DNA of 40,095 bases from a virus: IMG/VR virus record IMGVR_UViG_3300044274_000136, positions 1 to 40,095 of that record, one strand, 5' to 3'. The translations under genes were made by a program, and so were the position numbers. The notes below the pieces were generated by a model. The model saw nothing but the letters and a program-made list of their open reading frames with translations, was not told the origin of the DNA and did no database searches. Within the stretch, counting starts at the first letter, position 1; each line of letters begins with the position of its first letter. This document shows positions 2,338 to 40,095 of this stretch, one piece after another.

Positions 2338-3058
2338 TATCCCGCAATTAATATTAGAGAGGCTTAGAGAAGAAAGGGCAAAGTCTCCTAGTAAGAAACG
2401 CAAGGTAGCTTGTGTGATATATTGCCAACAAAAAGACATTATATGTGCTGGTCACAATCAGCGAATAACAGAAAGCCTTACACTTAGCCAGCCCAATTTT
2501 ATCAAGCAATGGTACGCTGAAACTAAAAAGAGAGCGACTTCGTATGATAAAGAGGATTTTGTCCACGCTGAAACGATGGCATGTTATAATTCTTATCGTA
2601 GGAAATTGGGGGTTGAAGATTATCATTATATTAGAAACATCAAAAAAGCGGTAAAAGTTTATGTAACACACAAGCCTTGTGAAGTTTGCGAAAAATATCT
2701 AAATGAGTTTTTTAATGAGCCTATTATCAAAGTTGTTGATTTAGATAAAAAAAAGGCATTCATAAAGCATGATGATGATAAAACCCAATATCAGCATTTA
2801 AGTCCTAAGTTCATTGAAGAGATGGCAGAGATTACCACACAGGGGGCTAAAAAATACGGTGGGGGTAACTACCTGAAAGGTGATGAGCAGGCTCTGATGC
2901 GTCTTTATGACGCCCTCATGAGGCATTTGCAAGCATGGCGTATGGGTGAAGAAGTAGACACTGAAAGTGGGAAGTCTCATTTATCCCATGTTGGTTGTAA
3001 TGCTATGATGATTTATGCGTTGGAGCATAAGCTGAAATTGACTGGTGAAAAAGCGTAA
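2327..3058 (+). CDS. Fusion: dCMP/cytidine deaminase-like zinc domain (N) plus DUF5664-like domain (C; family annotated dATP/dGTP diphosphohydrolase N-terminal)
   Basis: N half: KRKVACVIY..AGHNQ, HAE (VHAETMA), PCxxC (KPCEVCEKYL). C half: KKYGGGNYLKGDEQALMRLYDALMRHLQAWRMGEEVDTESGKSHLSHVGCNAMMIYALE. Confidence 0.7.
   Translation: MEYNIPQLILERLREERAKSPSKKRKVACVIYCQQKDIICAGHNQRITESLTLSQPNFIKQWYAETKKRATSYDKEDFVHAETMACYNSYRRKLGVEDYHYIRNIKKAVKVYVTHKPCEVCEKYLNEFFNEPIIKVVDLDKKKAFIKHDDDKTQYQHLSPKFIEEMAEITTQGAKKYGGGNYLKGDEQALMRLYDALMRHLQAWRMGEEVDTESGKSHLSHVGCNAMMIYALEHKLKLTGEKA
3034..3053 (+). repeat. Direct repeat, left copy (AAATTGACTGGTGAAAAAGC), flanking an 868-bp gene cassette
   Basis: 19/20 identical to 3902-3921; encodes the C-terminus KLTGEKA of the deaminase fusion. 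Confidence 0.8.
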
Positions 3059-3076
3059 AGTAATATCAAAAACTTA

Positions 3077-3105
3077 TTGACAAGCAAGTCTTGCTATGTT
3101 AGGTT
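3077..3105 (+). promoter_or_regulatory. Cassette b: TTGACA-17-TAGGTT with palindrome AGCAAG-T-CTTGCT
   Basis: The 22-nt core cttattgacaagcaagtcttgc is identical in cassettes a, b and c; the leader aacaataggatataaa precedes ATG 3131. Confidence 0.6.
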
Positions 3106-3130
3106 AAAGTAACAAACAATAGGATATAAA

Positions 3131-3616
3131 ATGATTGCTTTAAATGTTGAAAAAATTACTAATGTTTTAGAAAAAGCTGGCTTACGTTACTTTGTTAAAA
3201 CGGCTAATACTGGTACTAATTATATTAATATACCATCATTTGATGTGGTGGTAAGGGTTGCCGATCATAGCGATGCTTATTGTACTAGTGATATTTCGAT
3301 CAGTCCGCTTGATGATAACTACACTGATTTTTTAGAGTTTATGGTGCGTAAAATCGCTGATTATAATGATGATGGTATGTATCAAAACGAGCTAGACATA
3401 TTTACTAAAAGATATAACGCTAGTAAATCTGCCAGAGAAAGGGCTGTTAATGCTAAAATTAAGGCAAGAGATGAGCTTATACAGAAGGCTAAAATTGAAA
3501 AGCAGAGATTGGAAGATCAGGCTAAATGGATTGAGGAAAATTATCCTGATTACTCTACTTTGTCTAAAAGACAAAAAAAATCAATAAGACAAAAATATAA
3601 CAAATCAATGAGATAA
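3131..3616 (+). CDS. Hypothetical protein with Lys/Glu-rich C-terminal helix
   Basis: ORF behind cassette b; no family recognised (motif VRVADHSDAY noted). Confidence 0.6.
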   Translation: MIALNVEKITNVLEKAGLRYFVKTANTGTNYINIPSFDVVVRVADHSDAYCTSDISISPLDDNYTDFLEFMVRKIADYNDDGMYQNELDIFTKRYNASKSARERAVNAKIKARDELIQKAKIEKQRLEDQAKWIEENYPDYSTLSKRQKKSIRQKYNKSMR

Positions 3617-8922: not shown

Positions 8923-9641
8923 GTGTTTTTACAGAATACTACACAGATTTACTGATTATACAGTATCAGTCGTTGCCAAAGACACGGGCTTTTTTAGAAG
9001 CCTTGTTAAAAAACGTATTGGTTTATGATGTTTTGTTTCAAATTCGAGATGGTTTTAATATTGAAACGGCAGTAGGTAAGCAACAAGATATATTAGGGGA
9101 GTATATTGGTGCTAGTCGTACTTACGAAATATCAGAAGACCCCGACCCTACTTTATTTTTTGGCATGATCGATGGCAGTAATGCTGATCATGTTGCTAAC
9201 CCTCAAGCTTTTTGTAAGGGGTTCAGTAATCTTCCTAACAATCCTAGCAACTGGTTTATTACTAGTGATTTAAAGGTTGTTACAATGGGCAATGATTTAT
9301 ACCGCCAGATATTAAAGCTTAAAATAAAGTTAAACTCACTATCTCACACTACTGAAAGCATAGAGGAGGTATTAAGCACACTTTTTGATAATAAAGTGAT
9401 TCTTTATGATACTAACAGTATGGAGCTTGTGTATCGTATCACGGAGCTTAATGAGTTTATAAAAGCTGCTTTAAATAAAAAACTTTTGCCAAAGCCAGCA
9501 TGTGTAGGTGTTAAGGGTATTATTGACGATAGACCATTTTTTGGTATGATTGACGGTAGTATTTCAGAGCATGTGCAAAATCCGCAAAAATACACTGGTG
9601 GTTTTGGTTCACCTTGGGTAGAATATCGAAACTATGGCTAA
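8919..9641 (+). CDS. Baseplate/tail-fibre-attachment protein (gpI position, DUF2612-like)
   Basis: Follows the J-like gene with an ATGA overlap. N-terminus YYTDLLIIQYQSLPK. Internal duplicated motif (L/P)FFGMIDGS..HV.NPQ. Confidence 0.55.
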   Translation: MSVFTEYYTDLLIIQYQSLPKTRAFLEALLKNVLVYDVLFQIRDGFNIETAVGKQQDILGEYIGASRTYEISEDPDPTLFFGMIDGSNADHVANPQAFCKGFSNLPNNPSNWFITSDLKVVTMGNDLYRQILKLKIKLNSLSHTTESIEEVLSTLFDNKVILYDTNSMELVYRITELNEFIKAALNKKLLPKPACVGVKGIIDDRPFFGMIDGSISEHVQNPQKYTGGFGSPWVEYRNYG

Positions 9642-10509
9642 AATAACAAGAAACAATCAGAAAGTATTCGGCGATAATTCAGCTGTTAATAATTTTTATC
9701 AATTCGGCAATTCGAATGTCACTACTAAAGATGTGGCAACAATGCAGGCGGGCAATTGGCTTAATGGTTGGTCAGATGGTGGTGTTAATATCAATGGTGT
9801 AATAACGCCAGAGTTTCAAGAGTTTAACACGCTAAGTTATGTCACAACCTCGCAGATAGCGTATTTACAGCAAGAGGGAATAGCAGAGTGGCATACTGAA
9901 ACAGAATACCATCAAAACAGTATCATTAAAGAGAGTGGAACAACCAAATTATACGTTAGTTTGACCAACAACAACACTGGAAATGCTGTTAATAGTGGGG
10001 GTGATAATGCATTCTGGAAGTTTGCTGGTGATTTAGTAAGTCTTGTTTCTAGTCAAGTTTTAGCGGGTTCTATCATGGCATATTCTGCACAAACAGTACC
10101 TGCTGGTTATTTAGAGTGCGACGGGTCAACACTGGACACCACCCAATATGCTGATTTATTTAACACCATAGCTTATACCTATGGTGGCTCTGGTGCGAGC
10201 TTTAATATACCAGATTTAAGGGGTGAGTTTATCCGTGGTTGGGATAATAGCAGAGGTATTGATAGTGGTAGAACTTTTGGTTCATCTCAACAAGCAAATG
10301 TCGTTGTTCCAAGAGATGATTGGGGGGCGGCGGGACCTGCATTTGACCCTAACAGTTCTGGTCAGCTTGGCAGGTTAATGGTTGCGTCTGGGCAACCTGA
10401 AATTAGCGAAAGTTTAGAATCCATAAGGGTTGCCGCCACAGATAAAACGATCACAACAAACGATACTAGACCAAGAAACATAGCTTTAAAGTATATAATA
10501 AGGTTTTAA
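9634..10509 (+). CDS. Tail fibre protein with C-terminal phage tail-collar domain
   Basis: GSIMAYSAQTVPAGYLECDGSTLDTTQYADLFNTIAYTYGGSGASFNIPDLRGEFIRGWDN is a classic Collar-domain signature. Confidence 0.85.
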   Translation: MAKITRNNQKVFGDNSAVNNFYQFGNSNVTTKDVATMQAGNWLNGWSDGGVNINGVITPEFQEFNTLSYVTTSQIAYLQQEGIAEWHTETEYHQNSIIKESGTTKLYVSLTNNNTGNAVNSGGDNAFWKFAGDLVSLVSSQVLAGSIMAYSAQTVPAGYLECDGSTLDTTQYADLFNTIAYTYGGSGASFNIPDLRGEFIRGWDNSRGIDSGRTFGSSQQANVVVPRDDWGAAGPAFDPNSSGQLGRLMVASGQPEISESLESIRVAATDKTITTNDTRPRNIALKYIIRF

Positions 10510-12763: not shown

Positions 12764-12991
12764 ATGAACAAGTATTTAGAAGATACAGCAGGCAACAAAT
12801 CTAGCAAAAGGCTTTGGGGGTCAATAGTGTTCACAGTAGCCATTGTATTAAGTGTATACGCGGTTGTTGCTAGTGTTTACTTAGGAAATTCAATAGATAG
12901 CAATGTTTTTAATATTATTGCTTCACTATCTTTATCTGGAACTTCCCTCCTAGGAATAGGTACTTTTGAGAAAGGTAAGCGTGACATTTAA
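12764..12991 (+). CDS. Putative holin (two TM segments)
   Basis: NKSSKRLWGSIVFTVAIVLSVYAVVASVYL and NIIASLSLSGTSLLGIGTF hydrophobic spans with a charged C-terminus; lies upstream of the spanin-like pair. Confidence 0.5.
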   Translation: MNKYLEDTAGNKSSKRLWGSIVFTVAIVLSVYAVVASVYLGNSIDSNVFNIIASLSLSGTSLLGIGTFEKGKRDI

Positions 12992-13199
12992 ACCATGGCA
13001 TCTTATATCAAAAATAGTGGGGTTTATTTCTGCGGTTATCCTTGCCTTTAATCGTGGGAAAATAGCAAAGGAGCAAGAAAACATAAACAATAACTATAAA
13101 GAGGTAATAAAGGGTGCTAAACGGAAAAAAAAACGTAATCTTGATAGTGATACTACTGTTAGAGAGCGGTTGCTCAAAAATGCTAGAGACAGAAAGTAA
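12981..13199 (+). CDS. Putative i-spanin-like protein (N-terminal TM, highly charged C-terminal part)
   Basis: GTG 12981 sits 5 nt after AAAGG. LISKIVGFISAVILAF is followed by a Lys/Arg/Glu-rich tail. The 3' end overlaps the next ORF in another frame. Confidence 0.4.
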   Translation: MTFKPWHLISKIVGFISAVILAFNRGKIAKEQENINNNYKEVIKGAKRKKKRNLDSDTTVRERLLKNARDRK

Positions 13200-13329
13200 T
13201 AATCAATCAATATGTGCATTTTTAGAAGAAGTTAGACCTTTCACCGAAGAAATCAACAATTTATCAATTGAAACTTTGCGTCAGATTGATAACAATAACG
13301 AAGAGATAAAACATTACTGCACAAAGTGA
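13114..13329 (+). CDS. Putative o-spanin (lipoprotein-like), overlapping the i-spanin-like gene
   Basis: GTG start 9 nt after GAGG. The signal KKNVILIVILLLESGC|S has an imperfect lipobox; further Cys residues occur in the mature part. Confidence 0.4.
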   Translation: MLNGKKNVILIVILLLESGCSKMLETESNNQSICAFLEEVRPFTEEINNLSIETLRQIDNNNEEIKHYCTK

Positions 13330-14051: not shown

Positions 14052-15449
14052 ATGGCTGATGTCAATCTTGGTGTTAAGGTAGATGTTAGTAAATTGATAT
14101 TAGAGCCTTATCACCCTTTATGTGCTTATATGCTTACTAATGAATATTCTCATTATTTTGTAAAGGGTGGTAGGCAATCGGGCAAGACGGTATTTAGTGC
14201 GTTGATGTGTATCTTAAATTTATTTAAAGATCCCAATAGTAATGCTTTGTGTTTGCGTAATGATTTTGCACACTTAAGAAAGTCTGTATATAACGAGGTT
14301 AAAAAGGCTATATCATTTATCGATGAAATGCATTCTTCAAGTTTGGCAAAAATGATAGAGACTAGATTTAATGGTTATTCGGGAGAAATGGCAGAGCGAA
14401 AATATGATGAAGCTATACTTGAAAAGAGTTTTAAAAGTAAATTGCAACCTTTAGAGATAGTTTTTAAAGATACAGGTCAACTCATTACTTTTGCTGGAGC
14501 AAACGAACCTGAAAAGATCAAGGGTTTAACAACTGCTAATAAAAACAAGTATTATGGCTATATATGGTTTGATGAATTCCAAGAAGTTAATCAAGGTGTT
14601 GATAAAGCTATGAACATTAGAGCTACTTGTGAGAGGGGAAATGCTGAAAAAGTCATAAGTATTTATACTTATAACCCCCCGCCTAATCCTAAGCATTGGA
14701 TTAACCAAAACATCACAAAGAATTTTTATAACGCTAGGGAATGGCATAAAAACTACAACGATTTGCCCGAGGGTATAATATCAGAAGGTACTAAAAAACA
14801 AGCAGAGCATTTAAAAGCAGTTAATAACCCCAAATACAGAAATGTATGGCTAGGCGAGCCAGTAGGTACACCAGAGGGGCTGGTGTTCCATAATAAGTTT
14901 GAGGCTAAGGAGTTTGCAACACCGCCTACTAGTCAGATGTATAATGGTCAACCTTTTTTTGGTGCAGACTGGGGCTTTAATGATGCAACAACGCTGATCA
15001 AGTCATTTGCCATAGGGAATGATTTATATGTTAGTGATGAAATTTACTTGCAGGGCAACCTAGTGGAAGAAGTAGTGGAAGAATTTAAGCAGATGGACGG
15101 GCTTTTTGAAGGTGCAGGCATGTGGAATATCATTGCTGATAGCTCTAACCCTACCATGATAGCAGAATGTCTCAATAAAGGGTTAACTAATATAGACCCT
15201 GCTAAAAAAGGTAAGGATAGCGTAGTGGCTGGCATATCATACTTAAAGCTCTTTCATAAGATATACATACACCCTCGTTGCAAGAATACTATTGATGAAT
15301 TTAATAACTATCGATATGCTGAAGACAAAATAACGGGTAAGTATTTGCCTAAAATAAAAGACGGTGATGATCATTGCATTGATGCCCTAAGATATGCTTG
15401 GGAAGATATGATGCGAAGCGATGTACACCCCAGTGATTATGTACAGTAA
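14052..15449 (+). CDS. terL: Terminase large subunit
   Basis: Walker A VKGGRQSGKT, Walker B IWFDEFQE, nuclease motifs ADSSNP and GDDHCIDALRYA. Confidence 0.92.
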   Translation: MADVNLGVKVDVSKLILEPYHPLCAYMLTNEYSHYFVKGGRQSGKTVFSALMCILNLFKDPNSNALCLRNDFAHLRKSVYNEVKKAISFIDEMHSSSLAKMIETRFNGYSGEMAERKYDEAILEKSFKSKLQPLEIVFKDTGQLITFAGANEPEKIKGLTTANKNKYYGYIWFDEFQEVNQGVDKAMNIRATCERGNAEKVISIYTYNPPPNPKHWINQNITKNFYNAREWHKNYNDLPEGIISEGTKKQAEHLKAVNNPKYRNVWLGEPVGTPEGLVFHNKFEAKEFATPPTSQMYNGQPFFGADWGFNDATTLIKSFAIGNDLYVSDEIYLQGNLVEEVVEEFKQMDGLFEGAGMWNIIADSSNPTMIAECLNKGLTNIDPAKKGKDSVVAGISYLKLFHKIYIHPRCKNTIDEFNNYRYAEDKITGKYLPKIKDGDDHCIDALRYAWEDMMRSDVHPSDYVQ

Positions 15450-16734
15450 AATAGTTAATGCAATAAACGGCTTTAAGAACAGCAACTATCATCATGATAC
15501 AGGCACTCAATCTTATGCTACTAGCAACATAGATTATATATCTACTATTGCTAGCATGACGCCTAGCGATTTCATTACTTGTGACTACGAGGTGCTATCT
15601 AACTTAGAAATTGTTAACCCCATTGTAAAAAGATATGTTAACCAGCCAGTAGATGATGCGTTCAAAGATGGGTTTAAGGTTAGAACACCCTCTTTATCTG
15701 AAGGTCAGATTTCAACTCTCTACTCAGAGATGCAAAAAAGAGGTATTATCGAGCAAATCAAGGAAGCATGTAAGCTTAGTAGATTGTACGGTGGCTCTAT
15801 CTTAGTATTTGGTAGCTATGATCGCAAGAGCAACGATGCTAACAGAAAGCCTATATCTTTTAAAGACTGTGATTTGATCAAAGCTGTTAGTAGATGGGAT
15901 TTTTCAAGCGTTAACGATCATAATAAATTTGCGAACCTATCGACTATTACAATGAAGATAAACAACGCCACTAATTTATCTTACAATGGCGTATCGTTCC
16001 ACCCTTCTAGACTAGTGCCATTTGCTAGTAATTTACCAAAATCAAGGAAAGGTTATTCCATAACTCAAGGGTGGGGATTCTCCAGCTTAGAGCATATACG
16101 TGAGGGGTTAGTGCTTTACAAAAAGCAAGAGCAAGCTTTTTTAGACTTTATCACCAAAGCTAAGATAGATAAGCTTAAAATTGCCGACCTTTCTAAAATA
16201 CGTAAGCAACCCAATGCTAACCAGCTAATTGGTGAGATGTTAAATCGCATAGCAACGCAACGCAATGCCAGCAGTGTTATGCTATTAGATAAAGATGATG
16301 AATTTGTAACTGATACGCTAGACTTTGCAGGTATAAGCCAAGCACAAGCAGATATGCGAAAAATGCTTTATATGACAACTGGTATCCCAGCAGAAAAGCT
16401 AGCAGGTAACCAAGAAGGCGGCAGTGGCTTAGGGGGAACACAAGACCAACTAGAGGTATACAACGCCCTAGTAAATGGTGAAGTCAGAGAGGCAGCCAAG
16501 CCCTCTATGATGCAATGTACAAACATAGTGGCAAAGTTCCTCTTTGATATCGATTATCTCGATGATTTACAGATAGAATTTCCATCTATGAGAGAAAGCA
16601 CAGATGCTGAAATGGAAGCCAACAAAACAGCACATCTCGATAGGTTAACAAAAACCCTTAATGATGGCATAATAGATGAAGATCAATATACAGAAGCGGT
16701 GAATAACCATGACCTTTTAGGCATAACGTTATAG
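15421..16734 (+). CDS. Portal protein (DUF1073-type); start 15421 or 15439
   Basis: Follows terL with an overlap; size 437 aa; RLYGGSILVFG and GIPAEKLAGNQEGG motifs resemble DUF1073 portals. Confidence 0.75.
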   Translation: MYTPVIMYSKIVNAINGFKNSNYHHDTGTQSYATSNIDYISTIASMTPSDFITCDYEVLSNLEIVNPIVKRYVNQPVDDAFKDGFKVRTPSLSEGQISTLYSEMQKRGIIEQIKEACKLSRLYGGSILVFGSYDRKSNDANRKPISFKDCDLIKAVSRWDFSSVNDHNKFANLSTITMKINNATNLSYNGVSFHPSRLVPFASNLPKSRKGYSITQGWGFSSLEHIREGLVLYKKQEQAFLDFITKAKIDKLKIADLSKIRKQPNANQLIGEMLNRIATQRNASSVMLLDKDDEFVTDTLDFAGISQAQADMRKMLYMTTGIPAEKLAGNQEGGSGLGGTQDQLEVYNALVNGEVREAAKPSMMQCTNIVAKFLFDIDYLDDLQIEFPSMRESTDAEMEANKTAHLDRLTKTLNDGIIDEDQYTEAVNNHDLLGITL

Positions 16735-16749
16735 TAGTATATTTCCTTA

Positions 16750-16778
16750 TTGACAAGCAAGTCTTGCTATGTTAGGTT
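16750..16778 (+). promoter_or_regulatory. Cassette c: TTGACA-17-TAGGTT with palindrome AGCAAG-T-CTTGCT
   Basis: Identical over the 32 nt cttattgacaagcaagtcttgctatgttaggt to cassette b; lies 16 nt after the portal stop. Confidence 0.6.
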
Positions 16779-16804
16779 AAAGTTAACAAATAATAGGAAA
16801 ATAT

Positions 16805-17203
16805 ATGACTGAAGACATACTAAAATACAAAATGGAAGACGGTCTAAAGATCATCTTAAAAGATGGTAAAGGTTCGTATCTTAGCTCTAGCGCTGAATAT
16901 TACGACCCAGTATATAAATATTATAAACGTAACTCATTGTTAGTCATTGAAGGACAAGGACTCTATAAGTATACACATGAATTATCAGACGTAGAGGCGA
17001 TAATAGAGTACAAATTAATTACAACAATGATTTCTGAGACGGGAAAGGAGTTTCGTTATTTTCGTGCATTTAAAGACAAAAAACATATTGATAGCAATGA
17101 TGATAATGAAATTTGCTTTAATGAAATAGAGGCAAAGATAAAAGAAATTAAAGAGGAATATGAAGAGATGTCGTCTTATGCAAAACAAGTAACTAACACT
17201 TGA
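16805..17203 (+). CDS. Hypothetical protein (island gene 1)
   Basis: ORF behind cassette c. It begins ATGACTGAA like TPR-2, TPR-3 and erf. Its TGA stop lies inside the TTGACA of cassette d. Confidence 0.6.
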   Translation: MTEDILKYKMEDGLKIILKDGKGSYLSSSAEYYDPVYKYYKRNSLLVIEGQGLYKYTHELSDVEAIIEYKLITTMISETGKEFRYFRAFKDKKHIDSNDDNEICFNEIEAKIKEIKEEYEEMSSYAKQVTNT

Positions 17204-17228
17204 CAAGTAAATCTTGCAATGTTATAGT
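17200..17228 (+). promoter_or_regulatory. Cassette d: TTGACA-17-TATAGT
   Basis: ttgacaagtaaatcttgcaatgttatagt followed by the leader taagtaacaaaaaataaggatatatt and ATG 17255. Confidence 0.6.
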
Positions 17229-17254
17229 TAAGTAACAAAAAATAAGGATATATT

Positions 17255-17872
17255 ATGACGACAGAGCAAAACATCATTCAAGATATCATAAATAAATATA
17301 GGGATTTAATTAATTTAACTCCTAACTTTGAGAAACATTACAGTTATCCAAAAATTACGGATTTAGTAAAGGGAAACTATGGTTTTTATTATACAGAGAT
17401 AGGGAAAGCTTATAACCTTTGGAGGGAGAAAGAAAAAGCCATTGAATGCCACAAGAAAGCAGTTGAGTTAAGCCCTAGCACAACGTCTTATTACTGGCTT
17501 GCTGAGGCATACAATACAAGTGATGATTTAGATAAAAAAATAGCAGCTTATAAAAAAGCAATTGAGTTAGATACAAGGGAGAGAGACTCTTTAGAAGCGT
17601 TAGAAAGTTTAGCATTAGTTTATTTCATGACTGATAAACATAATGAGGCATTAGCTAGTTATGAAAAACTCCTTGAAAAAGAATGGCTTTTTAGTGCAAA
17701 ACATAAGGCAAAGCTGTTTTACATGCTTGCAGTGTGTTATGAAGATGTCGAAAGATACGAAGATGCAAAAGAAGCCTATACTAAAAGCTATCAAATTGAT
17801 CCCGACTTAGTAAAGCAACGTGATGTATTGGCACGGCTTGCAAATAGTGTAGATTGGCAGACAGGGAATTAA
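17255..17872 (+). CDS. TPR-repeat protein (TPR-4)
   Basis: AIECHKKAVELSPSTTSYYWLAEAY, KIAAYKKAIELD and YEDAKEAYTKSYQIDPD repeats. Confidence 0.8.
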   Translation: MTTEQNIIQDIINKYRDLINLTPNFEKHYSYPKITDLVKGNYGFYYTEIGKAYNLWREKEKAIECHKKAVELSPSTTSYYWLAEAYNTSDDLDKKIAAYKKAIELDTRERDSLEALESLALVYFMTDKHNEALASYEKLLEKEWLFSAKHKAKLFYMLAVCYEDVERYEDAKEAYTKSYQIDPDLVKQRDVLARLANSVDWQTGN

Positions 17873-17895
17873 AACAGGTGCATTACGATCAATAC

Positions 17896-18159
17896 ATGTC
17901 ATTTTTTAGGAAAAGGCGATACGATGCACAGATAAAGCAGATAAAAAAGGATTTAAAAGTATCTGAAATTTCTTTTGAGAAGGAACGGCTAGAGCTTGAA
18001 GAGATAGAGAGGAAAATAGGGGTTAAAGCTAAAGACTTGCCTAGCATCATTGCTGATGAGATTACGTGGGAGGGTGGTATTGTTACCTATAGAAAGGGTG
18101 ATATGTATTACTCTCAAAAGATTAATTTAGCAGATAAGCAAGTAAGGTATAGGAGGTAG
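17896..18159 (+). CDS. Hypothetical coiled-coil protein (start uncertain: TTG 17854, GTG 17878 or ATG 17896)
   Basis: ORF 17854-18159; first ATG at 17896. Confidence 0.45.
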   Translation: MSFFRKRRYDAQIKQIKKDLKVSEISFEKERLELEEIERKIGVKAKDLPSIIADEITWEGGIVTYRKGDMYYSQKINLADKQVRYRR

Positions 18160-18162
18160 TAT

Positions 18163-18303
18163 ATGGCAAAGCCAGATAAAGTGGAGAACTTTCTAAATGG
18201 TGTACGTTATTGGCTACTAGGTATAACGTGTCTGCTTATAGGAACGTTTACAGCGTTAGCATTATTCTTAATATGTTATGATATGATGGGGTATTTAGTA
18301 TGA
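18163..18303 (+). CDS. Small membrane protein, 46 aa (below the track cutoff)
   Basis: MAKPDKVENFLNGVRYWLLGITCLLIGTFTALALFLICYDMMGYLV; strong SD AGGAGG 7 nt upstream. Confidence 0.55.
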   Translation: MAKPDKVENFLNGVRYWLLGITCLLIGTFTALALFLICYDMMGYLV

Positions 18304-18467
18304 GTAAGATTGATTCTGATAAATTTGTTTTTTTTATAATAAATATTTGTTTAATAGCTATGGGTATTGTTATTAGTACTTTGTTACTTTCTATCTCCGT
18401 TTTTCTTATTGATGGTGTAATAGACATTATATGGGATAAACCTTGTGTTTGTGAGGGGGGTGGGTAA
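18300..18467 (+). CDS. Small membrane protein, 55 aa (below the track cutoff)
   Basis: MSKIDSDKFVFFIINICLIAMGIVISTLLLSISVFLIDGVIDIIWDKPCVCEGGG. ATGA overlap upstream and TAATG overlap downstream. Confidence 0.45.
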   Translation: MSKIDSDKFVFFIINICLIAMGIVISTLLLSISVFLIDGVIDIIWDKPCVCEGGG

Positions 18468-18787
18468 TGACTAAAAAAACATTACACCCTAATTGGCAGC
18501 CAATAAATACCGCCCCAAAAAATCGCAGGTTTCTTGTGTATGCTAAGGTGGGTATTATTTATATACCTACATTTAGTTTTATTGATGGTAACAAATATGA
18601 AGATGGTTGCGAAGAGGTAAAATTTGGTGGCATAAAAGATTGTGAGTGGCTGGAAGATCGCTTTTACTGTGATGGTTTTGAGTTTTGCGATAAAGGTTAT
18701 TTGTTTAATGAAGATGAAAGAATCGCTACAGAAACACACTTAATCGGTTGGTTTGATTATAACGAAATTCAGGTTCCTAATGACTAA
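18467..18787 (+). CDS. Hypothetical protein with WxPIxTAPK N-terminal motif
   Basis: HPNWQPINTAPKNRRFLVYAK resembles a motif common in small proteobacterial phage proteins (DUF551-like). Confidence 0.55.
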   Translation: MTKKTLHPNWQPINTAPKNRRFLVYAKVGIIYIPTFSFIDGNKYEDGCEEVKFGGIKDCEWLEDRFYCDGFEFCDKGYLFNEDERIATETHLIGWFDYNEIQVPND

Positions 18788-19307
18788 ACAAAAACTCGCT
18801 AAATTAGAAGATATACAACAAGCAATTCTTGCCCATAATTCAGAATGGAAGGTTCTGGTTGACATAAAAGATATAGGTTTATGTCGTGTAGATTATCTAT
18901 TCTTATGTGGAAACGGACTTATTCAGATGCAATATAGATCATCAAAAGACAATCACTTTACTACAAAGCAAGTTGATTTCAAGGACTTGTATATCGGTGA
19001 AGAAAATCACCCAGACTTTTACCTTCATTCTGAACACAATGAAGAACTAGAGCCGAAAATTGATGATTTTGTTTATGGTAGTTTTTTGGAACATAATTCT
19101 ACTTACGAGGAAGATTTAAAAATTCTTTTAAATACAACCTCTCATGCAATATCTTTTAACCAGCAGAGCGACCCCGTCTCTTTGGTTCATTTTAAGCAAC
19201 TGGAAGCAGAAACACAGATTTATTATTTAAAAACGTGTTATCGTATTATTTATCGTGAAAACGTTGCATACTTTCCGCAATTTGAATGGGTAACATATCA
19301 TGACTAA
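18780..19307 (+). CDS. Hypothetical protein
   Basis: Start moved to ATG 18780 (8-nt overlap with the previous gene). Confidence 0.55.
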   Translation: MTKQKLAKLEDIQQAILAHNSEWKVLVDIKDIGLCRVDYLFLCGNGLIQMQYRSSKDNHFTTKQVDFKDLYIGEENHPDFYLHSEHNEELEPKIDDFVYGSFLEHNSTYEEDLKILLNTTSHAISFNQQSDPVSLVHFKQLEAETQIYYLKTCYRIIYRENVAYFPQFEWVTYHD

Positions 19308-19569
19308 TGAACAACTGTTTGATTTTTTTACTGGATTAAGCCAGCTACATAAACTTGACGCAGAACAATTAAATGATTTATTGCTAGTGCTTGATGATGT
19401 TTCAAAAGACATGAACAACACTGCTAAAGATTGGCGGGATTGTAAAGTGCCTTATGTTACGGAAAATAACCATAGCTTGCATGAGATGCAACTTTATGAG
19501 TTAAAACTTAAAATACATTCGGAATTAAAAGAAAAAGTAAAGGAACTATTAGAGTATGGCAATAAATAG
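19300..19569 (+). CDS. Hypothetical protein
   Basis: ORF with overlapping start and stop codons in an operon-like array. Confidence 0.55.
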   Translation: MTNEQLFDFFTGLSQLHKLDAEQLNDLLLVLDDVSKDMNNTAKDWRDCKVPYVTENNHSLHEMQLYELKLKIHSELKEKVKELLEYGNK

Positions 19570-19840
19570 ACATAATGGGTCTTATGGTAATGTAAAGCCT
19601 AAACCTTTTAGGCAATATCTTAAGGAATGGTTTTGTAAACATGATTTAAAGCTTGTTGGTCATAGAAAGGGGTTAAGCTATAGTAGAGAACGATATCCTG
19701 CTTGTGTACGTTTACATAATGGTGATATTGCTTGCTGGCATGATCATAATCAAATTGAGATTTATGAATGCTCTAAGTGTGGTGCTAAGGTTGAAAAGGT
19801 GGTCAGTAAAGAAACTAAGGTTTCTATATTATCTAGTTAA
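19556..19840 (+). CDS. Hypothetical Cys/His-rich protein
   Basis: CKH..C..H..C.H.H...CSKCG pattern suggests a small zinc-binding protein. Confidence 0.5.
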   Translation: MAINRHNGSYGNVKPKPFRQYLKEWFCKHDLKLVGHRKGLSYSRERYPACVRLHNGDIACWHDHNQIEIYECSKCGAKVEKVVSKETKVSILSS

Positions 19841-19846
19841 TGTATG

Positions 19847-19874
19847 TTTACAAGTTAAGCTTATGCTGTAAAAT
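19847..19874 (+). promoter_or_regulatory. Degenerate cassette-like promoter (TTTACA-16-TAAAAT) ending 6 nt before ATG 19881
   Basis: tttacaagttaag matches cassette e ttgacaagttaag; there is no SD between the -10 and the ATG. Confidence 0.4.
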
Positions 19875-19880
19875 CTAGTC

Positions 19881-20852
19881 ATGAAACTAGGTGACAAGAT
19901 CAAGATCACAAAGGCTATGCACGCTAAGCAGGCTGATGAGATTAAGGCTATTTTATATGATCAGATATTTAGACCTATCATAGACATTAGCGAGTTCACA
20001 GATCGGGATTTGTTTAATGATAATGATGATTTATTGCGTGCGTTACGTGCAGGTGAGATTATATATAAAGATGGTGCTTTTAGGGGTAAATTTAGTGCAT
20101 CGATTACAAAGGCATTGCGTAAGATAGGGGCAGAGTATGGCAGAGTGGCAGGACAGCCAGTTTATAAGCTAAAGGATATCAGCAGTACTGATTTATCAGC
20201 GTATAGGTCAGCTATACTGGTAGGCACTGCAAACGCTGAAAGGTTGCTAACTAATGTTGAGGGGTATTTAGAAGCGTTAAGTTTTGATACGTCTAACTTT
20301 GATGTATCACCAAGCAGTACGATTGATCAGTTGAACAAGAAGATATCCAAATCACTAAATAAGATGGGTATAGAGGCAACATCGACTACCGATATTGAGG
20401 AGCAGTTAACTAAGAGATATATCGAGAATGTTAATCTTAGTATCAAGAAAGCATCTAATGATACTGTGATTAAGTTGCGTAAAAAGATAGCAGAGCGAGG
20501 GCTAGATGGCACTAGGGCTGAAAGCTTCGTGGATATGATTAGGAAGGAACTAAAAGCTAGTGAGAAGCGAGCGGCTTTTATAGCACGTCAAGAGACTGGG
20601 TTACTAGTTAGTAAGTATAAAGAGGAAAACTATAAGCGAGTAGGCATAAGGCGTTATGTGTGGGATACAACGGGTAATAATAGGGTAAGGGAAGATCATG
20701 AGAGTTTAGATGGTCAGATATTTAGTTGGGATAACCCACCAATTAGCAATCAGAGTGAAGTTGCGAGGGGGTTACCTGCTAGGTATAATCACCCGGGCGA
20801 AGACTTCCGTTGTTTTTGTGTAGCAAGACCACTTGTTGATGAAAGTAGTTGA
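19881..20852 (+). CDS. Head morphogenesis protein (Mu F / SPP1 gp7 family)
   Basis: ARQETGLLVSKY..YVWDTTGNNRVREDHESLDGQIFSWDNPP is the family signature. Confidence 0.85.
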   Translation: MKLGDKIKITKAMHAKQADEIKAILYDQIFRPIIDISEFTDRDLFNDNDDLLRALRAGEIIYKDGAFRGKFSASITKALRKIGAEYGRVAGQPVYKLKDISSTDLSAYRSAILVGTANAERLLTNVEGYLEALSFDTSNFDVSPSSTIDQLNKKISKSLNKMGIEATSTTDIEEQLTKRYIENVNLSIKKASNDTVIKLRKKIAERGLDGTRAESFVDMIRKELKASEKRAAFIARQETGLLVSKYKEENYKRVGIRRYVWDTTGNNRVREDHESLDGQIFSWDNPPISNQSEVARGLPARYNHPGEDFRCFCVARPLVDESS

Positions 20853-31771: not shown

Positions 31772-32032
31772 ATGAAGGCTTTACATTTTTTCAAAAATCA
31801 GGTTAGCATAATAGACATTAGTGATCATGCCAATTACTCTAAGCTATGTGTTAATGGTGTTTCAGAGGTGCAACAAATTGTAGGCTTGATTGATCAGAAG
31901 CTATTAACCCAGCCTTATGCAGGAAGCCCTCCAGTGGTTGTTTTTAAAGGCTCTAAGGGTACTCTGATCGTTAAAAAGTACCTTAAAGAGACTGGTAAGC
32001 TAATACCTCAAAAGCTTAAGTATCTTCTTTAA
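31772..32032 (+). CDS. Hypothetical protein
   Basis: ORF converging on, and overlapping by 17 nt, the minus-strand XRE gene. Confidence 0.4.
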   Translation: MKALHFFKNQVSIIDISDHANYSKLCVNGVSEVQQIVGLIDQKLLTQPYAGSPPVVVFKGSKGTLIVKKYLKETGKLIPQKLKYLL

Positions 32033-32474
32033 GTATGGCATACAGTTTGTCAGTGCTGATTTTATCTTTTCCCGTCACACCTTTTACAAACCTTATCAAA
32101 TTCTCTTTATCTTTTTTGCTTTTAATCCTATTAAAGGCTTTTATCAATTGAACTACTTGTCTATCTTGACTACTAATCAGGTCTTTTCTACTCATTTTTA
32201 GGTTAGTCATGGGTGTTCCACTAAATAGGTAATCCAAATCAATGTTTAGTATATTGCACAGGCTTATTATAAACTCATAGTTCATCCTAATAATCTCACC
32301 CTTTTCATGTTGCTGGATTGATTGCCTTGTTATGTCCATGAGTTTGGCTAATTGTGCCCTAGTTAATTGATGAAGTTCCCTAGCACAATAGATATTATAG
32401 CCTATCCGCTGTGACACTGTCATTTTTTCAATCGGTACTTCGGGAAAGTTTTCTGGTTTTGACTTTTTTGCCAT
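32016..32474 (-). CDS. XRE-family HTH regulator with C-terminal helical domain (XRE-2)
   Basis: RIGYNIYCARELHQLTRAQLAKLMDITRQSIQQHEKGE is an HTH_3 signature. Confidence 0.8.
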   Translation of the reverse strand: MAKKSKPENFPEVPIEKMTVSQRIGYNIYCARELHQLTRAQLAKLMDITRQSIQQHEKGEIIRMNYEFIISLCNILNIDLDYLFSGTPMTNLKMSRKDLISSQDRQVVQLIKAFNRIKSKKDKENLIRFVKGVTGKDKISTDKLYAILKEDT

Positions 32475-32885
32475 TTAATCCTCTAAAACTCCATGATTGA
32501 TTTTTTGCAGGCAGTTGGTCTTAGTCATACTAGTCATAAATTCCACTAACCTAATTTGTGCGGCTTGATCAATCTTTAAGTAGCATGTTACTAGCCTTGC
32601 TATATTATCATCGTTCATCAATGTATACGTTACATCATTTCTTTGATCATCATCTAAAAATTCTTGATCAAAAAACCAATTTGCATCTACCTGCAAAGCC
32701 CTAGCTATTTGCAACAACTTATAAACTTTTAGAGATGTCATACCCGCCTCATACTTTTGTATTTGTTGCGTGCTAACTTCTAAATGCAATGCTAATTGTG
32801 TTCTACTTAAACCTAGCAGTTTCCTTCGAATTCTGATTTTTCTGCCAACCGCTAAGTCAATTTGCTTTTGAAATTCTGTATTCAT
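32475..32885 (-). CDS. XRE-family HTH regulator with C-terminal helical domain (XRE-1)
   Basis: VGRKIRIRRKLLGLSRTQLALHLEVSTQQIQKYEAGMTS..IARALQVDANWFF is an HTH_3 signature. Confidence 0.85.
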   Translation of the reverse strand: MNTEFQKQIDLAVGRKIRIRRKLLGLSRTQLALHLEVSTQQIQKYEAGMTSLKVYKLLQIARALQVDANWFFDQEFLDDDQRNDVTYTLMNDDNIARLVTCYLKIDQAAQIRLVEFMTSMTKTNCLQKINHGVLED

Positions 32886-32890
32886 ATTAT

Positions 32891-33067
32891 TTACCTTTTT
32901 TTATTTTGATAATATCCATATATTATTAAGATATAGTATATGATAGCTATTGAAATCATGGGGGTGCTTTGGAGCATATAACCAAGTATGCCAAATAGAA
33001 GCCCCCACGTTTGCTTAGCTATATGCTCCCAAATCTTAACAGCTTGCTCTAAAAAAAAATTTCTCAT
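32891..33067 (-). CDS. Small membrane protein, 58 aa
   Basis: Start moved to ATG 33067 (ATGA overlap with the upstream gene): MRNFFLEQAVKIWEHIAKQTWGLLFGILGYMLQSTPMISIAIIYYILIIYGYY. Confidence 0.5.
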   Translation of the reverse strand: MRNFFLEQAVKIWEHIAKQTWGLLFGILGYMLQSTPMISIAIIYYILIIYGYYQNKKR

Positions 33068-33249
33068 ATGTGGTGCAAGGTTGTTAATATAGTAGCTATG
33101 GCAAATAAACCATACATAGGCACGATAAAGCATAAACGTATCATACAAGCTCGCTTGCCTTTACCCTCGATTCTTTCATTAATTTCGAATATTGCGTATA
33201 TTATAAAAGCCCAAAGTGCTACTAATAATATAAAATCTACTGGTATCAT
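33064..33249 (-). CDS. Small two-TM membrane protein, 61 aa
   Basis: DFILLVALWAFIIYAIF and LCFIVPMYGLFAIATILTTL; SD AAGGAGG upstream; TAATG overlap with the upstream gene. Confidence 0.55.
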   Translation of the reverse strand: MIPVDFILLVALWAFIIYAIFEINERIEGKGKRACMIRLCFIVPMYGLFAIATILTTLHHI

Positions 33250-33563
33250 TATTTAGCCTCCTTGTTATTTGGCAATAAACTACCTGCATACGCAACGTAA
33301 CCAATATTATGATAGCCACAACTCCAGCTTATTTCTCTTATATGTTCACCTTTGCGTACTACTAACAACGCTCTACCGCCTACAATGCGTTCAGTAGGGT
33401 GCTTTGAGTGTGGCGTATATAGAGTTATTGCATCTACTAACTCGATGTCTTTATTTTTGGCTAAAACCTCATTGCAATAGTCGGTGTACTTCTTTGGAGG
33501 CTTGGCAACCATGAAGTGAAATTCACTGCTTTCAAATTCTATTAGATATGTTGGTAAGTTCAT
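33249..33563 (-). CDS. Hypothetical protein, first gene of the leftward operon
   Basis: ORF behind a TTGACG-17-TATTAT promoter with a cassette-like leader aaataataaggatatatatt. Confidence 0.6.
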   Translation of the reverse strand: MNLPTYLIEFESSEFHFMVAKPPKKYTDYCNEVLAKNKDIELVDAITLYTPHSKHPTERIVGGRALLVVRKGEHIREISWSCGYHNIGYVAYAGSLLPNNKEAK

Positions 33564-34363: not shown

Positions 34364-34636
34364 TCACTTTTTCTCTGGCACGTATAAACCTTCGTAAAAA
34401 TCAGTTACACTTATTTCAAAGTATTTAGCCAGTTTGTTTAGATTTTCCACACTTATTGTTAATTTACCTTTTTCAAACAAAGATACTGCTTGCCTAGTAA
34501 CACCTAAGCATTCTGCCACAGCAAGGACATTAGCTCCCGAGCGTTCGCGTATTTTCCTAACATTTCTGCCAATGACTTGATTAACATTAAGGTAATAAAA
34601 CAAAAACAATAGTATTATTGCCAATGTGCAAAACAT
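34364..34636 (-). CDS. Small XRE-family HTH regulator (repressor-like) with hydrophobic N-terminal extension
   Basis: IGRNVRKIRERSGANVLAVAECLGVTRQAVSLFEKGK is an HTH_3 signature; no SD lies before ATG 34636. Confidence 0.75.
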   Translation of the reverse strand: MFCTLAIILLFLFYYLNVNQVIGRNVRKIRERSGANVLAVAECLGVTRQAVSLFEKGKLTISVENLNKLAKYFEISVTDFYEGLYVPEKK

Positions 34637-37586: not shown

Positions 37587-37615
37587 TTGACAAGTTAAGA
37601 TTGCTATGTTAGATT
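37587..37615 (+). promoter_or_regulatory. Cassette e: TTGACA-17-TAGATT
   Basis: ttgacaagttaagattgctatgttagatt followed by the leader aaagttaacaaaaaaataaggatatatt and ATG 37644. Confidence 0.6.
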
Positions 37616-37643
37616 AAAGTTAACAAAAAAATAAGGATATATT

Positions 37644-38414
37644 ATGACTGAGCAACAACTCACTTTTTATCAGAAAGTTTCAAAGATACAGGCTGAATTG
37701 AATGCTCCTAAAAATGCGTTTAATGCTTTTGGGAAGTATAAATATCGCAATCTTGAGAGTATTCTTGAGAGCTTAAAGCCACATCTTGATAAACATGAAC
37801 TTTTTTTAACGTTAAACGATGAGATAGTTAAGTTTGATAATCCGCAGGGTATCCCAGTGGCAAGTGACGTTAATCAAAAAGCACCTCAAGCACCTAATTC
37901 AATAATAGATAGTATGCGTTGTCGTTATTACATTAAGGCTACAGCAACCATATCAGATGGTGCAAAAGAACTTTCAACTTTTGCATATGCACGGGAGGAG
38001 CTTTCTAAAAAAGGTATGGACGCTAGTCAATTAACAGGCTCTTGCAGTTCATACGCTAGAAAATATGCGTTAGGAGGGTTGTTTGCCATTGATGACAACA
38101 AAGACGCTGACAGTAGGGATAACACGGAAAGCAAGCAGATTAAGAGGAAGGTTAAAAGTAGTGAGCCTGCTAATCAAGGTAAAGAGAATATTTTAGCTGA
38201 TTTAACAAGTAAAGTTTCTAAATTGCAAAGCATACAAGAGGCTAATAGCTTATGGGTTGCAGCTATAGGTCATGTGCAAGGTGGTGATTTAGAGCGTGCT
38301 GATATTTCTGATTTTTGGAATCAGTTAGAGTATTATTGTGATATGACTTTTCAAGCTTCGTACGATAAACAAGCTAAGCAGTTTATTGTTAACGAAGGTG
38401 CAACGTTTCAGTAA
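37644..38414 (+). CDS. erf: Erf-family single-strand annealing protein
   Basis: ELNAPKNAFNAFGKYKYRNLESILESLKP, YYIKATATISDG and KKGMDASQLTGSCSSYARKYALGGLFAIDDNKDAD closely parallel P22 Erf. Confidence 0.93.
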   Translation: MTEQQLTFYQKVSKIQAELNAPKNAFNAFGKYKYRNLESILESLKPHLDKHELFLTLNDEIVKFDNPQGIPVASDVNQKAPQAPNSIIDSMRCRYYIKATATISDGAKELSTFAYAREELSKKGMDASQLTGSCSSYARKYALGGLFAIDDNKDADSRDNTESKQIKRKVKSSEPANQGKENILADLTSKVSKLQSIQEANSLWVAAIGHVQGGDLERADISDFWNQLEYYCDMTFQASYDKQAKQFIVNEGATFQ

Positions 38415-39234: not shown

Positions 39235-39495
39235 ATGATTATGATTTGTGATAATAAAGAAAACAGAGTAAAGCACTTTGTTGACGAGATTTGCAAAGCT
39301 TTAAACGAGAGGCGAGAAGCCAACATAATATTAGCAGATCTTTTAAAGCAGGCTGAAAGTGAAGGCTTTGATAAAAAGGCTTTACATCAAGTAGCAAGAG
39401 AACAATTCAAAATATCTCAAGATGACGAATTGCAAGCTGAGCTGAATCAACAACGCAATTTAGAAGAGATCTATCGTCAGGCTTTGCAAGAATGA
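39235..39495 (+). CDS. GapR-like DUF2312 DNA-binding protein
   Basis: LLKQAESEGFDKKALHQVAREQFK...LEEIYRQAL parallels Caulobacter GapR (VYAEAKGNGFDVKVLKKVVRIRK...ILDLYLSAIG). Confidence 0.7.
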   Translation: MIMICDNKENRVKHFVDEICKALNERREANIILADLLKQAESEGFDKKALHQVAREQFKISQDDELQAELNQQRNLEEIYRQALQE

Positions 39496-39983: not shown

Positions 39984-40095
39984 CTGAACGCTACAATAAA
40001 AAGTGCATGGCTTACTGTGCTAAAAACGACTATTCTAATGCCTTAAAGGTTTGCAAAAAAGCAGTCAAGGTATGCCCTAGTTATCCATACACGTA
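39969..40095. repeat. Second copy of the terminal overlap (same as 1-127)
   Basis: Direct reading; contains the RuvC-like stop codon (39981-39983) and the 5' end of the TPR-1 gene. Confidence 0.95.

Follow-up and report, generated by a model that had tools for sequence, protein, structure and literature searches.

Imm and Sp of phage T4 are small, early membrane proteins for superinfection immunity, which are expressed from host-type promoters and encoded in variable regions of the genome. The hyperplastic regions of T4-type phages contain PeSL cassettes and small, mostly ORFan, non-essential genes inserted between core genes (Arbiol et al. 2010, PMC2839356; Comeau et al. 2014, PMC4122927), and the small inner-membrane moron protein gp15 of HK97, encoded in the late operon, blocks the entry of DNA from superinfecting phages (PMC3594210). 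Here we analyzed a stretch of viral DNA of 40,095 nucleotides (IMG/VR record IMGVR_UViG_3300044274_000136, positions 1 to 40,095; the window), in which an accessory island separates the portal gene from the Mu-F head-morphogenesis gene. An earlier note on this DNA had described part of the island, positions 17200-18467, as the second copy of a repeated module composed of a promoter cassette, a protein made of tetratricopeptide repeats (TPR-4), a small coiled-coil protein and two overlapping mini membrane proteins (mini-1 and mini-2).

We explain this region as part of an island of shuffled cassettes, in which TPR-4 is a chimera, the two mini genes are real and separable, and their products would have an early role at the membrane. 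To this explanation as a whole we assign a probability of roughly 0.6; its evolutionary and anatomical part is well supported. The features on which it is built are the following.

16735-19880 (3.1 kb), forward strand: accessory island, hyperplastic and moron-like, between the portal and Mu-F genes; it contains the studied region.
16750-16774 and 16805-17203, forward strand: first island cassette, a type-A promoter with a 132-aa ORFan.
17177-17254, forward strand: cassette of promoter and 5' untranslated region, type C; -35 element TTGACA at 17200-17205, 17 nt, then the extended -10 element TGTTATAGT ending at 17228.
17255-17872, forward strand: TPR-4, 205 aa, a protein of TPR only (Pfam TPR_1, 1.5e-19).
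17806-17807, forward strand: junction of a 122-nt deletion, from DNA alignment with the arrangement in relatives L009 and L010.
17858-17859, forward strand: deletion of 1 nt (T), GGCTAGACAGG to GGCAGACAGG, from DNA alignment with L009 and L010.
17896-18159 from the ATG (87 aa; 101 aa from a TTG at 17854), forward strand: open reading frame (ORF) of the "coiled-coil protein", the C-terminal 60% of a 140/141-aa protein.
18151-18156, forward strand: Shine-Dalgarno (SD) sequence AGGAGG of mini-1, 6 nt before the ATG and within the RYRR* codons of the 140-aa gene.
18163-18303, forward strand: mini-1, 46 aa, with one predicted transmembrane (TM) segment at about residues 17-39; open in 8 variants.
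18300-18467, forward strand: mini-2, 55 aa, with a hydrophobic stretch of ~28 residues; open in 8 variants.
18455-18460, forward strand: run of six G at the 3' end of mini-2, with haplotypes differing in its length and in nearby indels.

All ORFs and the cassette promoter of the earlier description were found in the sequence. The comparison set consisted of nine distinct related haplotypes from metagenomes (L001, L009-L012, L013, L014/15, L018, L019, L024, L025 and L026), among which L009 and L010 are 41-kb contigs with 98-99.5% identity to the window in aligned stretches in and around the island. The GC content of the island (0.330) is the lowest of any 3.1-kb segment of the window; the genome mean is 0.363, and the flanking structural blocks have values of 0.367-0.382. 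Relatives with 87-99% identity in the flanking genes hold other gene sets in the island, differing in number and content, and Bdellovibrio phage phi1422 has just one gene, of 109 aa, between portal and Mu-F. The slot of the first cassette differs in each relative, being filled by a gene for 251 aa, a TPR protein of 127 aa or of 181 aa, an 83-aa TM protein, or 124 aa. Downstream of mini-2, ORFans of 106, 175/184, 89 and 94 aa occupy 18467-19840. Those at 18753-19307 and 19300-19569 have homologues in the early region of L019 (L019:5847-6608), and in L001 and L009 the stretch matching 18467-19840 is occupied instead by the gene of an N6/N4 DNA methyltransferase. Judged from these comparisons, island genes are swapped, deleted and fused between related phages as small cassettes.

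Two of the relatives have cassette slots that hold tandem-repeat proteins with a unit of ~36 residues, distinct from TPR (L014:2267-2710 and 3037-3585; L024:2010-2384 and 2708-3262). The repeat, ..QIRxGFxxGLTxEQVxxYAKPEF.., has no Pfam family on record.

In the alignments, the homology breakpoints coincide with promoter/leader units and gene boundaries. The left breakpoint fell at 16804-16825, at the ATG behind the first cassette, in seven out of seven comparisons that span the end of the portal gene. Cassette C (17177-17258) is matched ahead of differing genes in L014 (a 140-aa gene), L013 (a TPR gene and a 103-aa gene) and L024 (166-aa and 83-aa genes), and these matches end at 17258-17273. 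Further breakpoints lie at start/stop overlaps (17806/7, 18158-61, 18301 and 18454-82). Cassette sequence also encodes the ends of several genes (..EVTNK* and ..QVTNT*); the final codons of the 132-aa ORFan, KQVTNT*, extend into the next cassette. Cassettes are exchanged between related phages with cuts at the promoter/leader units and at the start/stop overlaps.

The conserved unit that leads many of the cassettes is about 60-80 nt long and comprises a sigma-70-type promoter, an AT-rich leader with TAAGGA, and ATG ACN. A 25-mer of the cassette occurs in five copies in the window (at 460, 3077, 16750, 17200 and 37587), with none expected, and at least three subtypes were distinguished, which have in common a TTGACAA -35 element, an ATGTTA -10 region and the leader AACAAAnAATAAGGATATATT-ATGAC. 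The promoter of cassette C (TTGACA-17 nt-TGnTATAGT) agrees with the consensus at 11 of 12 positions and is the best sigma-70-like site in 16500-20200; its conserved leader, AACAAAAAATAAGGATATATT, reaches the ATG of TPR-4. An inverted repeat, CAAG-N5-CTTG, overlaps the -35 hexamer (17203-17215; also at 463-475, 3080-3092, 16753-16765 and 37590-37602) and in the type-A cassette forms an 11-bp palindrome, GCAAGTCTTGC. This repeat may be the operator for one of the three phage Cro/CI-type helix-turn-helix (HTH) proteins encoded in the window. The same cassette lies upstream of the ERF recombinase gene (37587 to 37644; ERF by Pfam) and of the operon at 3131, which is 3' of the dCMP-deaminase gene. 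Because the cassette precedes these operons, the island genes would probably also be transcribed early, by the host RNA polymerase.

These features can be set against the two kinds of described systems. As in T4-type PeSL regions, a repeated strong sigma-70-like promoter leads each gene or short operon, and indel or replacement breakpoints between close relatives are located at the repeated motifs. The island differs in that its repeated unit runs through the 5' untranslated region to the first codons, in belonging to a 40-kb non-T4 myovirus, and in having cassettes without a terminator stem-loop. A stem-loop terminator as part of the cassette was considered and rejected, the five cassettes with their 50-nt upstream flanks folding like shuffled sequences (z -1.3 to +0.8). 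The terminator scan of the island gave no site downstream of mini-2 or at the island end and two weak sites versus 1.2 expected, one within the 106-aa ORF and the other on the opposite strand. With the morons of lambdoid phages the island shares its nature as extra DNA in a late structural operon that is absent or different in relatives, a promoter of its own (predicted), a deviating GC content and the coding of a small inner-membrane protein. Morons in the Juhala/Hendrix sense, however, have their own terminator, which was not found here; in addition, the phage has no integrase and its island promoter type is also found ahead of early recombination genes. The studied region is largely ordinary phage mosaicism, a new example of a known phenomenon that would not surprise phage genomicists.

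The origin of TPR-4 is an example of how the island is rearranged. In the ancestral order, seen in L009 and L010, a 202-aa TPR gene is followed by an intact 140-aa gene, whose ATG overlaps the stop codon of the former. Codons 1-184 of TPR-4 (17255-17806) derive from the 202-aa gene, with 100% identity to the L009 protein, and codons 185-205 (17807-17869, LVKQRDVLARLANSVDWQTGN) derive from the 140-aa gene, codon 24 onward. The 122-nt deletion takes the last 18 TPR codons together with codons 1-23 of the 140-aa gene and joins the two genes in frame. The 1-nt deletion, located 50 nt past the junction, shifts the frame, and TPR-4 ends with DWQTGN* at the TAA at 17870-17872; the two deletions amount to 123 nt, or 41 codons. 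The junction is a real haplotype, because it is identical in assemblies of four independent samples (L003/L008, L004, L005 and L007), and the 1-nt deletion is seen in every assembly of the window haplotype. By DNA alignment, then, TPR-4 is a deletion chimera and the 87-aa "coiled-coil" ORF is a leftover of the same event: the 122-nt deletion fused the TPR gene to the 140-aa gene, and the later loss of 1 nt ended the fusion. Fusion followed by truncation through two deletions is shuffling caught in mid-process. Programmed -1 frameshifting between TPR-4 and the 87-aa ORF was also considered; it is unlikely because the 25-nt overlap has no slippery heptamer, and L009 has two separate ORFs.

The small coiled-coil protein of the earlier note exists as an ORF of 87 aa, and a helical hairpin is predicted for its intact homologue, but the copy in the window is a fragment of the 140-aa gene. 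The ORF has neither its own ribosome-binding site nor start-stop coupling, carries the substitutions D115G and T116I at two nearly invariant positions of the 140-aa family, and starts at family residue 54, which leaves it without helix 1 of the predicted hairpin. It is probably a remnant, judged from these features, and may be translated by re-initiation after the TPR-4 stop codon. Using the longer homologue from the near-identical relative L001 as query, we found 20 full-length members of the family (138-141 aa, 76-100% identity), and the window copy alone is truncated. Wherever genomic context was examined, the gene is placed between portal and Mu-F (for example, L009:10001-10423 and L001:2650-3075). 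The AlphaFold2 (AF2) model of the family has helices 18-54 and 60-95 arranged as a hairpin, followed by a weak beta C-terminus (mean pLDDT 63), and the protein ends in a basic tail, KQVRYRR. The 140-aa protein had no match in Pfam, PHROG, NCBIfam or PADLOC, and a Foldseek search of PDB and BFVD with its model returned only generic helical hairpins, none at E <= 1e-3. The gp46 protein of phi1422 was rejected as a homologue on comparison.

A second, independent deletion chimera is present at L018:9299-9454. It encodes 51 aa, made of the N-terminus of a 103/114-aa gene and the last 33 residues of the 140-aa gene; both deletion variants, in the window and in L018, retain the C-terminal end of the 140-aa protein. 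The L018 chimera is followed by an uncalled ORF of ~105 aa with several TM segments (about 9490-9810).

TPR-4 itself is, as the earlier note had it, a 205-aa protein behind the cassette, and Pfam TPR_1 and the AF2 model agree on its nature. Its repeats score above the Pfam gathering thresholds of the TPR family (TPR_1, 69.4 bits against a cut-off of 27.8, in four stretches; TPR_8, 65.1 bits against 25.7), and the model consists of four TPR motifs (helix pairs 42-72, 76-105, 111-140 and 148-179) and a C-terminal helix. Like canonical TPR proteins it has four canonical 34-residue repeats, with 34% identity to consensus arrays. Unlike them it has no added domain, signal peptide or lipobox, and its C-terminal capping helix came from another gene through the deletion. 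Foldseek returned consensus TPR designs (34% identity to designed CTPR arrays), OGT and MamA only, and the fold therefore carries no specific function. NCBIfam matches of TPR-4 to MamA, PilW and LcrH all fall far short of the curated cut-offs. From its sequence and model, TPR-4 is probably a generic peptide-binding scaffold for a host or phage protein. PADLOC gave no match for TPR-4, the 140-aa protein, mini-1, mini-2 or the minis of the parallel arrangement at 460-1228 (copy 1), and only weak generic TPR matches for another TPR protein of the window, TPR-2.

The two mini genes follow the remnant. The SD sequence of mini-1, AGGAGG, is present as had been claimed, but with a spacing of 6 nt rather than 7; it is conserved in L001, L013, L024 and L025, and other SD-like sequences take its place in L014, L018 and L026. 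Mini-1 has a conserved N-terminus, MAKxDKVESFLxGVRY, and a conserved tail, CYDxMGYLV, with a TM segment between them that is variable and always hydrophobic. All 8 variants are open, at 69-83% identity, and the ratio of non-synonymous to synonymous rates (dN/dS) is 0.5-1.8 on very few sites.

Mini-2 was described earlier as a 55-aa hydrophobic ORF that ends in CVCEGGG and is joined to its neighbors by ATGA and TAATG overlaps, and this is what we find, ATGA between mini-1 and mini-2 and TAATG between mini-2 and the next gene. It begins with MSKIDSDK and has an acidic C-terminal motif, (L/F)IDG(V/I)IDI(I/M)WDKPCVCE, followed by a variable tail. In its 8 variants, which share 42-98% identity, W45, P48, C49, V50, C51 and E52 are invariant, and one lineage has an in-frame deletion of three codons (9 nt). 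After CVCE the tail is different in every haplotype: the six G of the window give CVCEGGG*, five G in L001 (L001:3370-3375) give CVCEGVGND*, and other tails occur in L009, L014, L018 and L019. Read in the annotated frame, the motif has 7 synonymous and 5 non-synonymous codon variants; the corresponding counts for the remaining five frames of this DNA are 1:8, 2:8, 2:9, 4:6 and 1:8. A HMMER search with mini-2 against 1.84 billion cluster representatives gave three matches at E <= 1e-3, two of them relatives and one spurious, and because this exhaustive profile search yielded just two true relatives the family is considered to be confined to this phage group. Scans of Pfam, PHROG, NCBIfam and PADLOC gave no usable match for mini-1, mini-2 or the minis of copy 1; the best Pfam/NCBIfam matches, TMEM238 (0.0076) and PsiE (0.012), are at chance level and well below cut-offs.

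By these patterns of conservation, mini-1 and mini-2 are genuine gene families restricted to the phage group. As a rule the two genes adjoin and are translationally coupled, and each is also found alone. As two phage-group-restricted membrane families, one of them with an invariant CxC motif, they are candidates for screens for exclusion or envelope targeting. Their arrangement among the haplotypes is as follows.

Window, L001, L014/15, L018, L025, L026 (six of nine haplotypes): mini-1 and mini-2 adjacent.
L013, L024: mini-1, then an acidic 50-aa ORF in place of mini-2.
L009-L012: mini-2 alone, mini-1 being deleted to its last ~20 nt.
L019: only mini-2, located in the early region 3' of an HTH gene and adjoining homologues of window 18753-19569.

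The earlier note saw in this locus a repeated functional module. An architecture parallel to it does exist at 460-1228, and a third mini pair is present in a leftward operon:

460-1228: copy 1, with promoter, a 137-aa TPR gene, a 57-aa ORF with two TM segments and a 46-aa ORF with one.
33064-33249 and 32891-33148: leftward mini pair.

A module with a common function is not borne out, because one copy is a deletion chimera, the linkage is not conserved and the mini pairs are unrelated. A TPR gene lies upstream of the minis only in the window, L009 and L013, with the intact 140-aa gene in between in the last two. The minis have no adjacent TPR gene in L014, L018, L025, L026 and L019. The TPR-2 gene of L019 has 95% identity to that of the window, homology stops exactly at its stop codon, and the minis of copy 1 are absent. 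We looked for homology of the three mini pairs to one another, and of mini-1 to mini-2, and rejected it (no match by blastp; hhalign probability <1%), a result that agrees with the remark in the earlier note that the small proteins of the copies lack sequence similarity; the profile comparison among the mini proteins that it proposed likewise leaves the three pairs unrelated. TPR-4 has 26-34% identity to the other three TPR genes by blastp, a generic repeat similarity. Since the minis are unrelated, the TPR similarity is generic and the L019 homology stops at TPR-2, the juxtaposition of TPR and mini genes is attributed to shuffling, twice independently, and the only linkage with some persistence is that of mini-1 with mini-2. 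An 83-aa protein that is encoded in the portal/Mu-F island of relatives, behind its own cassette (L009:9134-9385; L018:9036-9287), is homologous to the 57-aa protein of copy 1 (928-1101; 30% identity, E = 2e-7) and has the C-terminal AKNATI in common with it; the early region and the island therefore exchange small membrane genes. That three mini pairs in 40 kb are unusual, as had been stated, is not established, since 15 TM-like mini-ORFs arise by chance antisense to genes in this AT-rich genome; for the same reason hydrophobicity alone is no evidence for a gene, and it is conservation among relatives that has to decide. The result is useful for annotation and does not amount to a new kind of system, the thrice-repeated module being a by-product of shuffling.

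The same gene orders bear on the possibility that the TPR and mini genes are a chaperone-client module, present twice, in which small TPR-only proteins would hold the hydrophobic minis soluble until their insertion, as the class II TPR chaperones do in type III secretion systems (T3SS). A TPR-only gene is followed by two minis at both 518-1228 and 17255-18467, the TPR proteins are small (3-4 repeats), TPR-4 has sub-threshold NCBIfam matches to LcrH/SycD (1.5e-4) and SctY (2e-4), and each relative whose early region was examined has several TPR genes, which could act in trans. We nevertheless regard this as unlikely. The adjacency is not ancestral, the 140-aa gene with or without the 103-aa gene intervening in L009 and L013; five haplotypes carry minis with no TPR gene beside them and L019 a nearly identical TPR-2 without the minis of copy 1; and the mini proteins of the two copies are unrelated. 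The T3SS chaperone matches are also far below curated cut-offs, and the Foldseek matches were limited to consensus designs, OGT and MamA.

For the function of the minis, within the explanation of a shuffled island, we can offer only a graded set of suggestions. Mini-1 and mini-2 are predicted to insert, probably, in the inner membrane with the N-terminus inside, a topology that would place the acidic WDKPCVCE tail of mini-2 in the periplasm. The conservation of their soluble ends speaks for specific contacts and against generic membrane damage. Our best guess, which is tentative and drawn by analogy, is that they may block the entry of superinfecting phage DNA. The analogy is with HK97 gene 15, reportedly the subject of Cumby et al. 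2012, and with T4 Imm and Sp, which are likewise small early membrane proteins in variable regions. The latter likeness is limited: no relationship in sequence or family was found, and the minis are smaller, at 46 and 55 aa. Nor did the minis match gp15/YebO, no significant Pfam or NCBIfam family being returned at E <= 0.1. The remaining probability is divided among roles in lysis timing, in toxicity to the membrane and in inhibiting a host membrane protein, a TPR chaperone with its client, and peptide signalling.

A role in lysis timing, as a holin/antiholin-like pair or as lysis-inhibition proteins, is suggested by the layout of two one-TM proteins in overlapping genes, which is common in holin/antiholin and spanin pairs, and by the cysteines of the mini-2 tail, which could form regulatory disulfides. 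It is rather improbable in view of a separate, spanin-bearing lysis cluster at 12764-13329. The minis adjoin an endolysin or spanin gene in none of the haplotypes and have no lysis-cassette neighbors, each is dispensable in some relatives, they are placed behind an early-type promoter, and no holin family match was obtained from Pfam, PHROG or NCBIfam.

Toxicity was proposed in the earlier note, and small toxic membrane peptides, acting like type I toxins, in abortive infection or in host shut-off through early depolarisation, would fit the size and single TM helix of the minis, the strong SD and the fast turnover of TM residues between variants. However, the conserved parts are the soluble termini and not the TM helix, which argues for specific contacts; no antisense RNA or antitoxin feature was found, Rfam gave no match, and PADLOC gave none either. 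We take this to be improbable.

In a more speculative form of the membrane role, mini-1 and mini-2 would constitute an undescribed two-protein device of the inner membrane, in which the WDKPCVCE tail binds a metal or forms disulfide bonds with an envelope protein, and the TPR proteins load the device or sense a peptide released from it. The chance of this is slim. If true, it would be a functional TPR-plus-mini system in a phage of a Gram-negative host, and would go beyond shuffled ORFans.

Signalling of the RRNPP or arbitrium type, in which a TPR receptor would sense a secreted peptide from the mini-2 C-terminus, is the least probable of the alternatives. Its appeal lies in the TPR gene upstream of small ORFs with an N-terminal hydrophobic segment, in the pro-peptide-like pattern of mini-2, with a variable hydrophobic part and the invariant WDKPCVCE, and in the position of mini-2 directly 3' of an XRE-type HTH gene in L019. 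Yet RRNPP receptors have at least ~250 aa with an output domain, whereas TPR-4 has 205 aa, the other TPR genes encode 93-161 aa, and all consist of TPR repeats only (2-4 of them), without an HTH or enzymatic output domain. By sequence, the hydrophobic segments, of 23-28 residues with neutral n-regions and no conserved AxA site, resemble membrane anchors rather than Sec signal peptides, and the adjacency of TPR and mini genes expected for a receptor and its pro-peptide is not conserved. RRNPP systems are known from Firmicutes, and the host is Gram-negative by the spanin.

Several observations weigh against our explanation of a shuffled island with an early membrane role. The cassette is taken for a promoter only by its consensus match and conservation. 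No terminator was found between the island and the head genes, which is atypical of classical morons. Exclusion of the HK97 type, expressed from a prophage, is doubtful because the phage has no integrase, and the family scans gave no similarity of the minis to any known exclusion protein. In the mini genes dN/dS is high (0.4-2.9, on tiny counts), and variable sites are distributed evenly over the three codon positions, so the constraint is mostly weak or the TM segments are diversifying. Finally, an antisense frame across the minis (ORF 18248-18427, reverse strand, 59 codons) is open for 45-73 codons in all relatives. That ORF is itself unlikely as a real gene: an SD is lacking, its direction is opposite to that of the operon, and synonymous changes are fewer in it than in the sense frame.

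Some of these points would fit minis that are not genes at all, being chance hydrophobic ORFs in an AT-rich spacer that are conserved through close kinship. The 15 chance hydrophobic mini-ORFs antisense to genes, the lack of third-codon-position enrichment at variable sites, dN/dS near 1 in some pairs, and the omission by gene callers of mini-2 in L014, mini-1 in L024 and the minis of copy 1 in L022 all point that way. We judge it very improbable, because the minis are not non-coding spacer in relatives: both ORFs are open in 8 variants, to 42-69% identity. The 9-nt indel of mini-2 keeps the frame and a 2-nt insertion in mini-1 of L014 leaves both ORFs open; an SD-like sequence precedes mini-1 in every context; mini-2 relocates as a unit, with intact boundaries, to another region of the genome; and the synonymous excess in the mini-2 motif is confined to the annotated frame.

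The window is the ~40-kb genome of an uncultured marine myovirus. It is complete and circular because it carries a 127-bp terminal direct repeat (bases 1-127 are identical to 39969-40095), which gives a circular assembly of ~39,968 bp. Major capsid, sheath and further virion genes were identified by family searches in addition to those listed here.

12764-13329: lysis cluster just upstream of the terminase genes, with a holin candidate, a TM protein and an Rz-like spanin.
14052-15449: terminase.
15421-16734, forward strand: portal (Pfam Phage_portal_3, 1.2e-38).
19881-20852, forward strand: Mu-F head-morphogenesis gene (PHROG and Pfam).

The lysis cluster contains a 75-aa holin candidate with two TM segments (12764-12991), a 77-aa protein with an N-terminal TM segment (12966-13199) and an overlapping 71-aa ORF (13114-13329) that matches an Rz-like spanin PHROG (1.7e-6). 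It is probably the real lysis cluster of the phage, and no endolysin was identified. Because it encodes an Rz-like spanin, the host is expected to be Gram-negative. A scan of JGI metagenomes aimed at host identification gave no result, nor did a search of the literature for the sample accessions, and 185,579 species genomes, scanned with the 140-aa profile and again with a terminase profile, yielded no prophage copy. No integrase was found among the ORFs of the complete genome, the window has no tRNA genes, and the Rfam scan gave no match. A megablast search against 50,697 phage records produced no DNA-level match to the window. The closest isolate is phi1422, with 26% identity in portal and capsid, and since the nearest isolate is this distant the lineage is considered not yet described; relatives were found in marine metagenomes only, TARA samples among them. 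What the island shows is trading of accessory genes in this lineage, with promoter/leader units and gene overlaps as the cut-and-paste points.

The operon with the leftward mini pair (32016-33563, reverse strand) encodes a 104-aa ORF, two small membrane proteins, one of 61 aa with two TM segments that matches PHROG 31642 and one of about 58-85 aa, and two XRE-type HTH regulators. The third HTH gene is at 34364-34636 on the reverse strand. This region resembles a lysogeny-type switch, yet no integrase gene is evident among the ORFs of the genome. The window ends interrupt the first TPR gene (ORF 39-482), whose L022 counterpart encodes 161 aa and is located 3' of the gene at 39492-39983.

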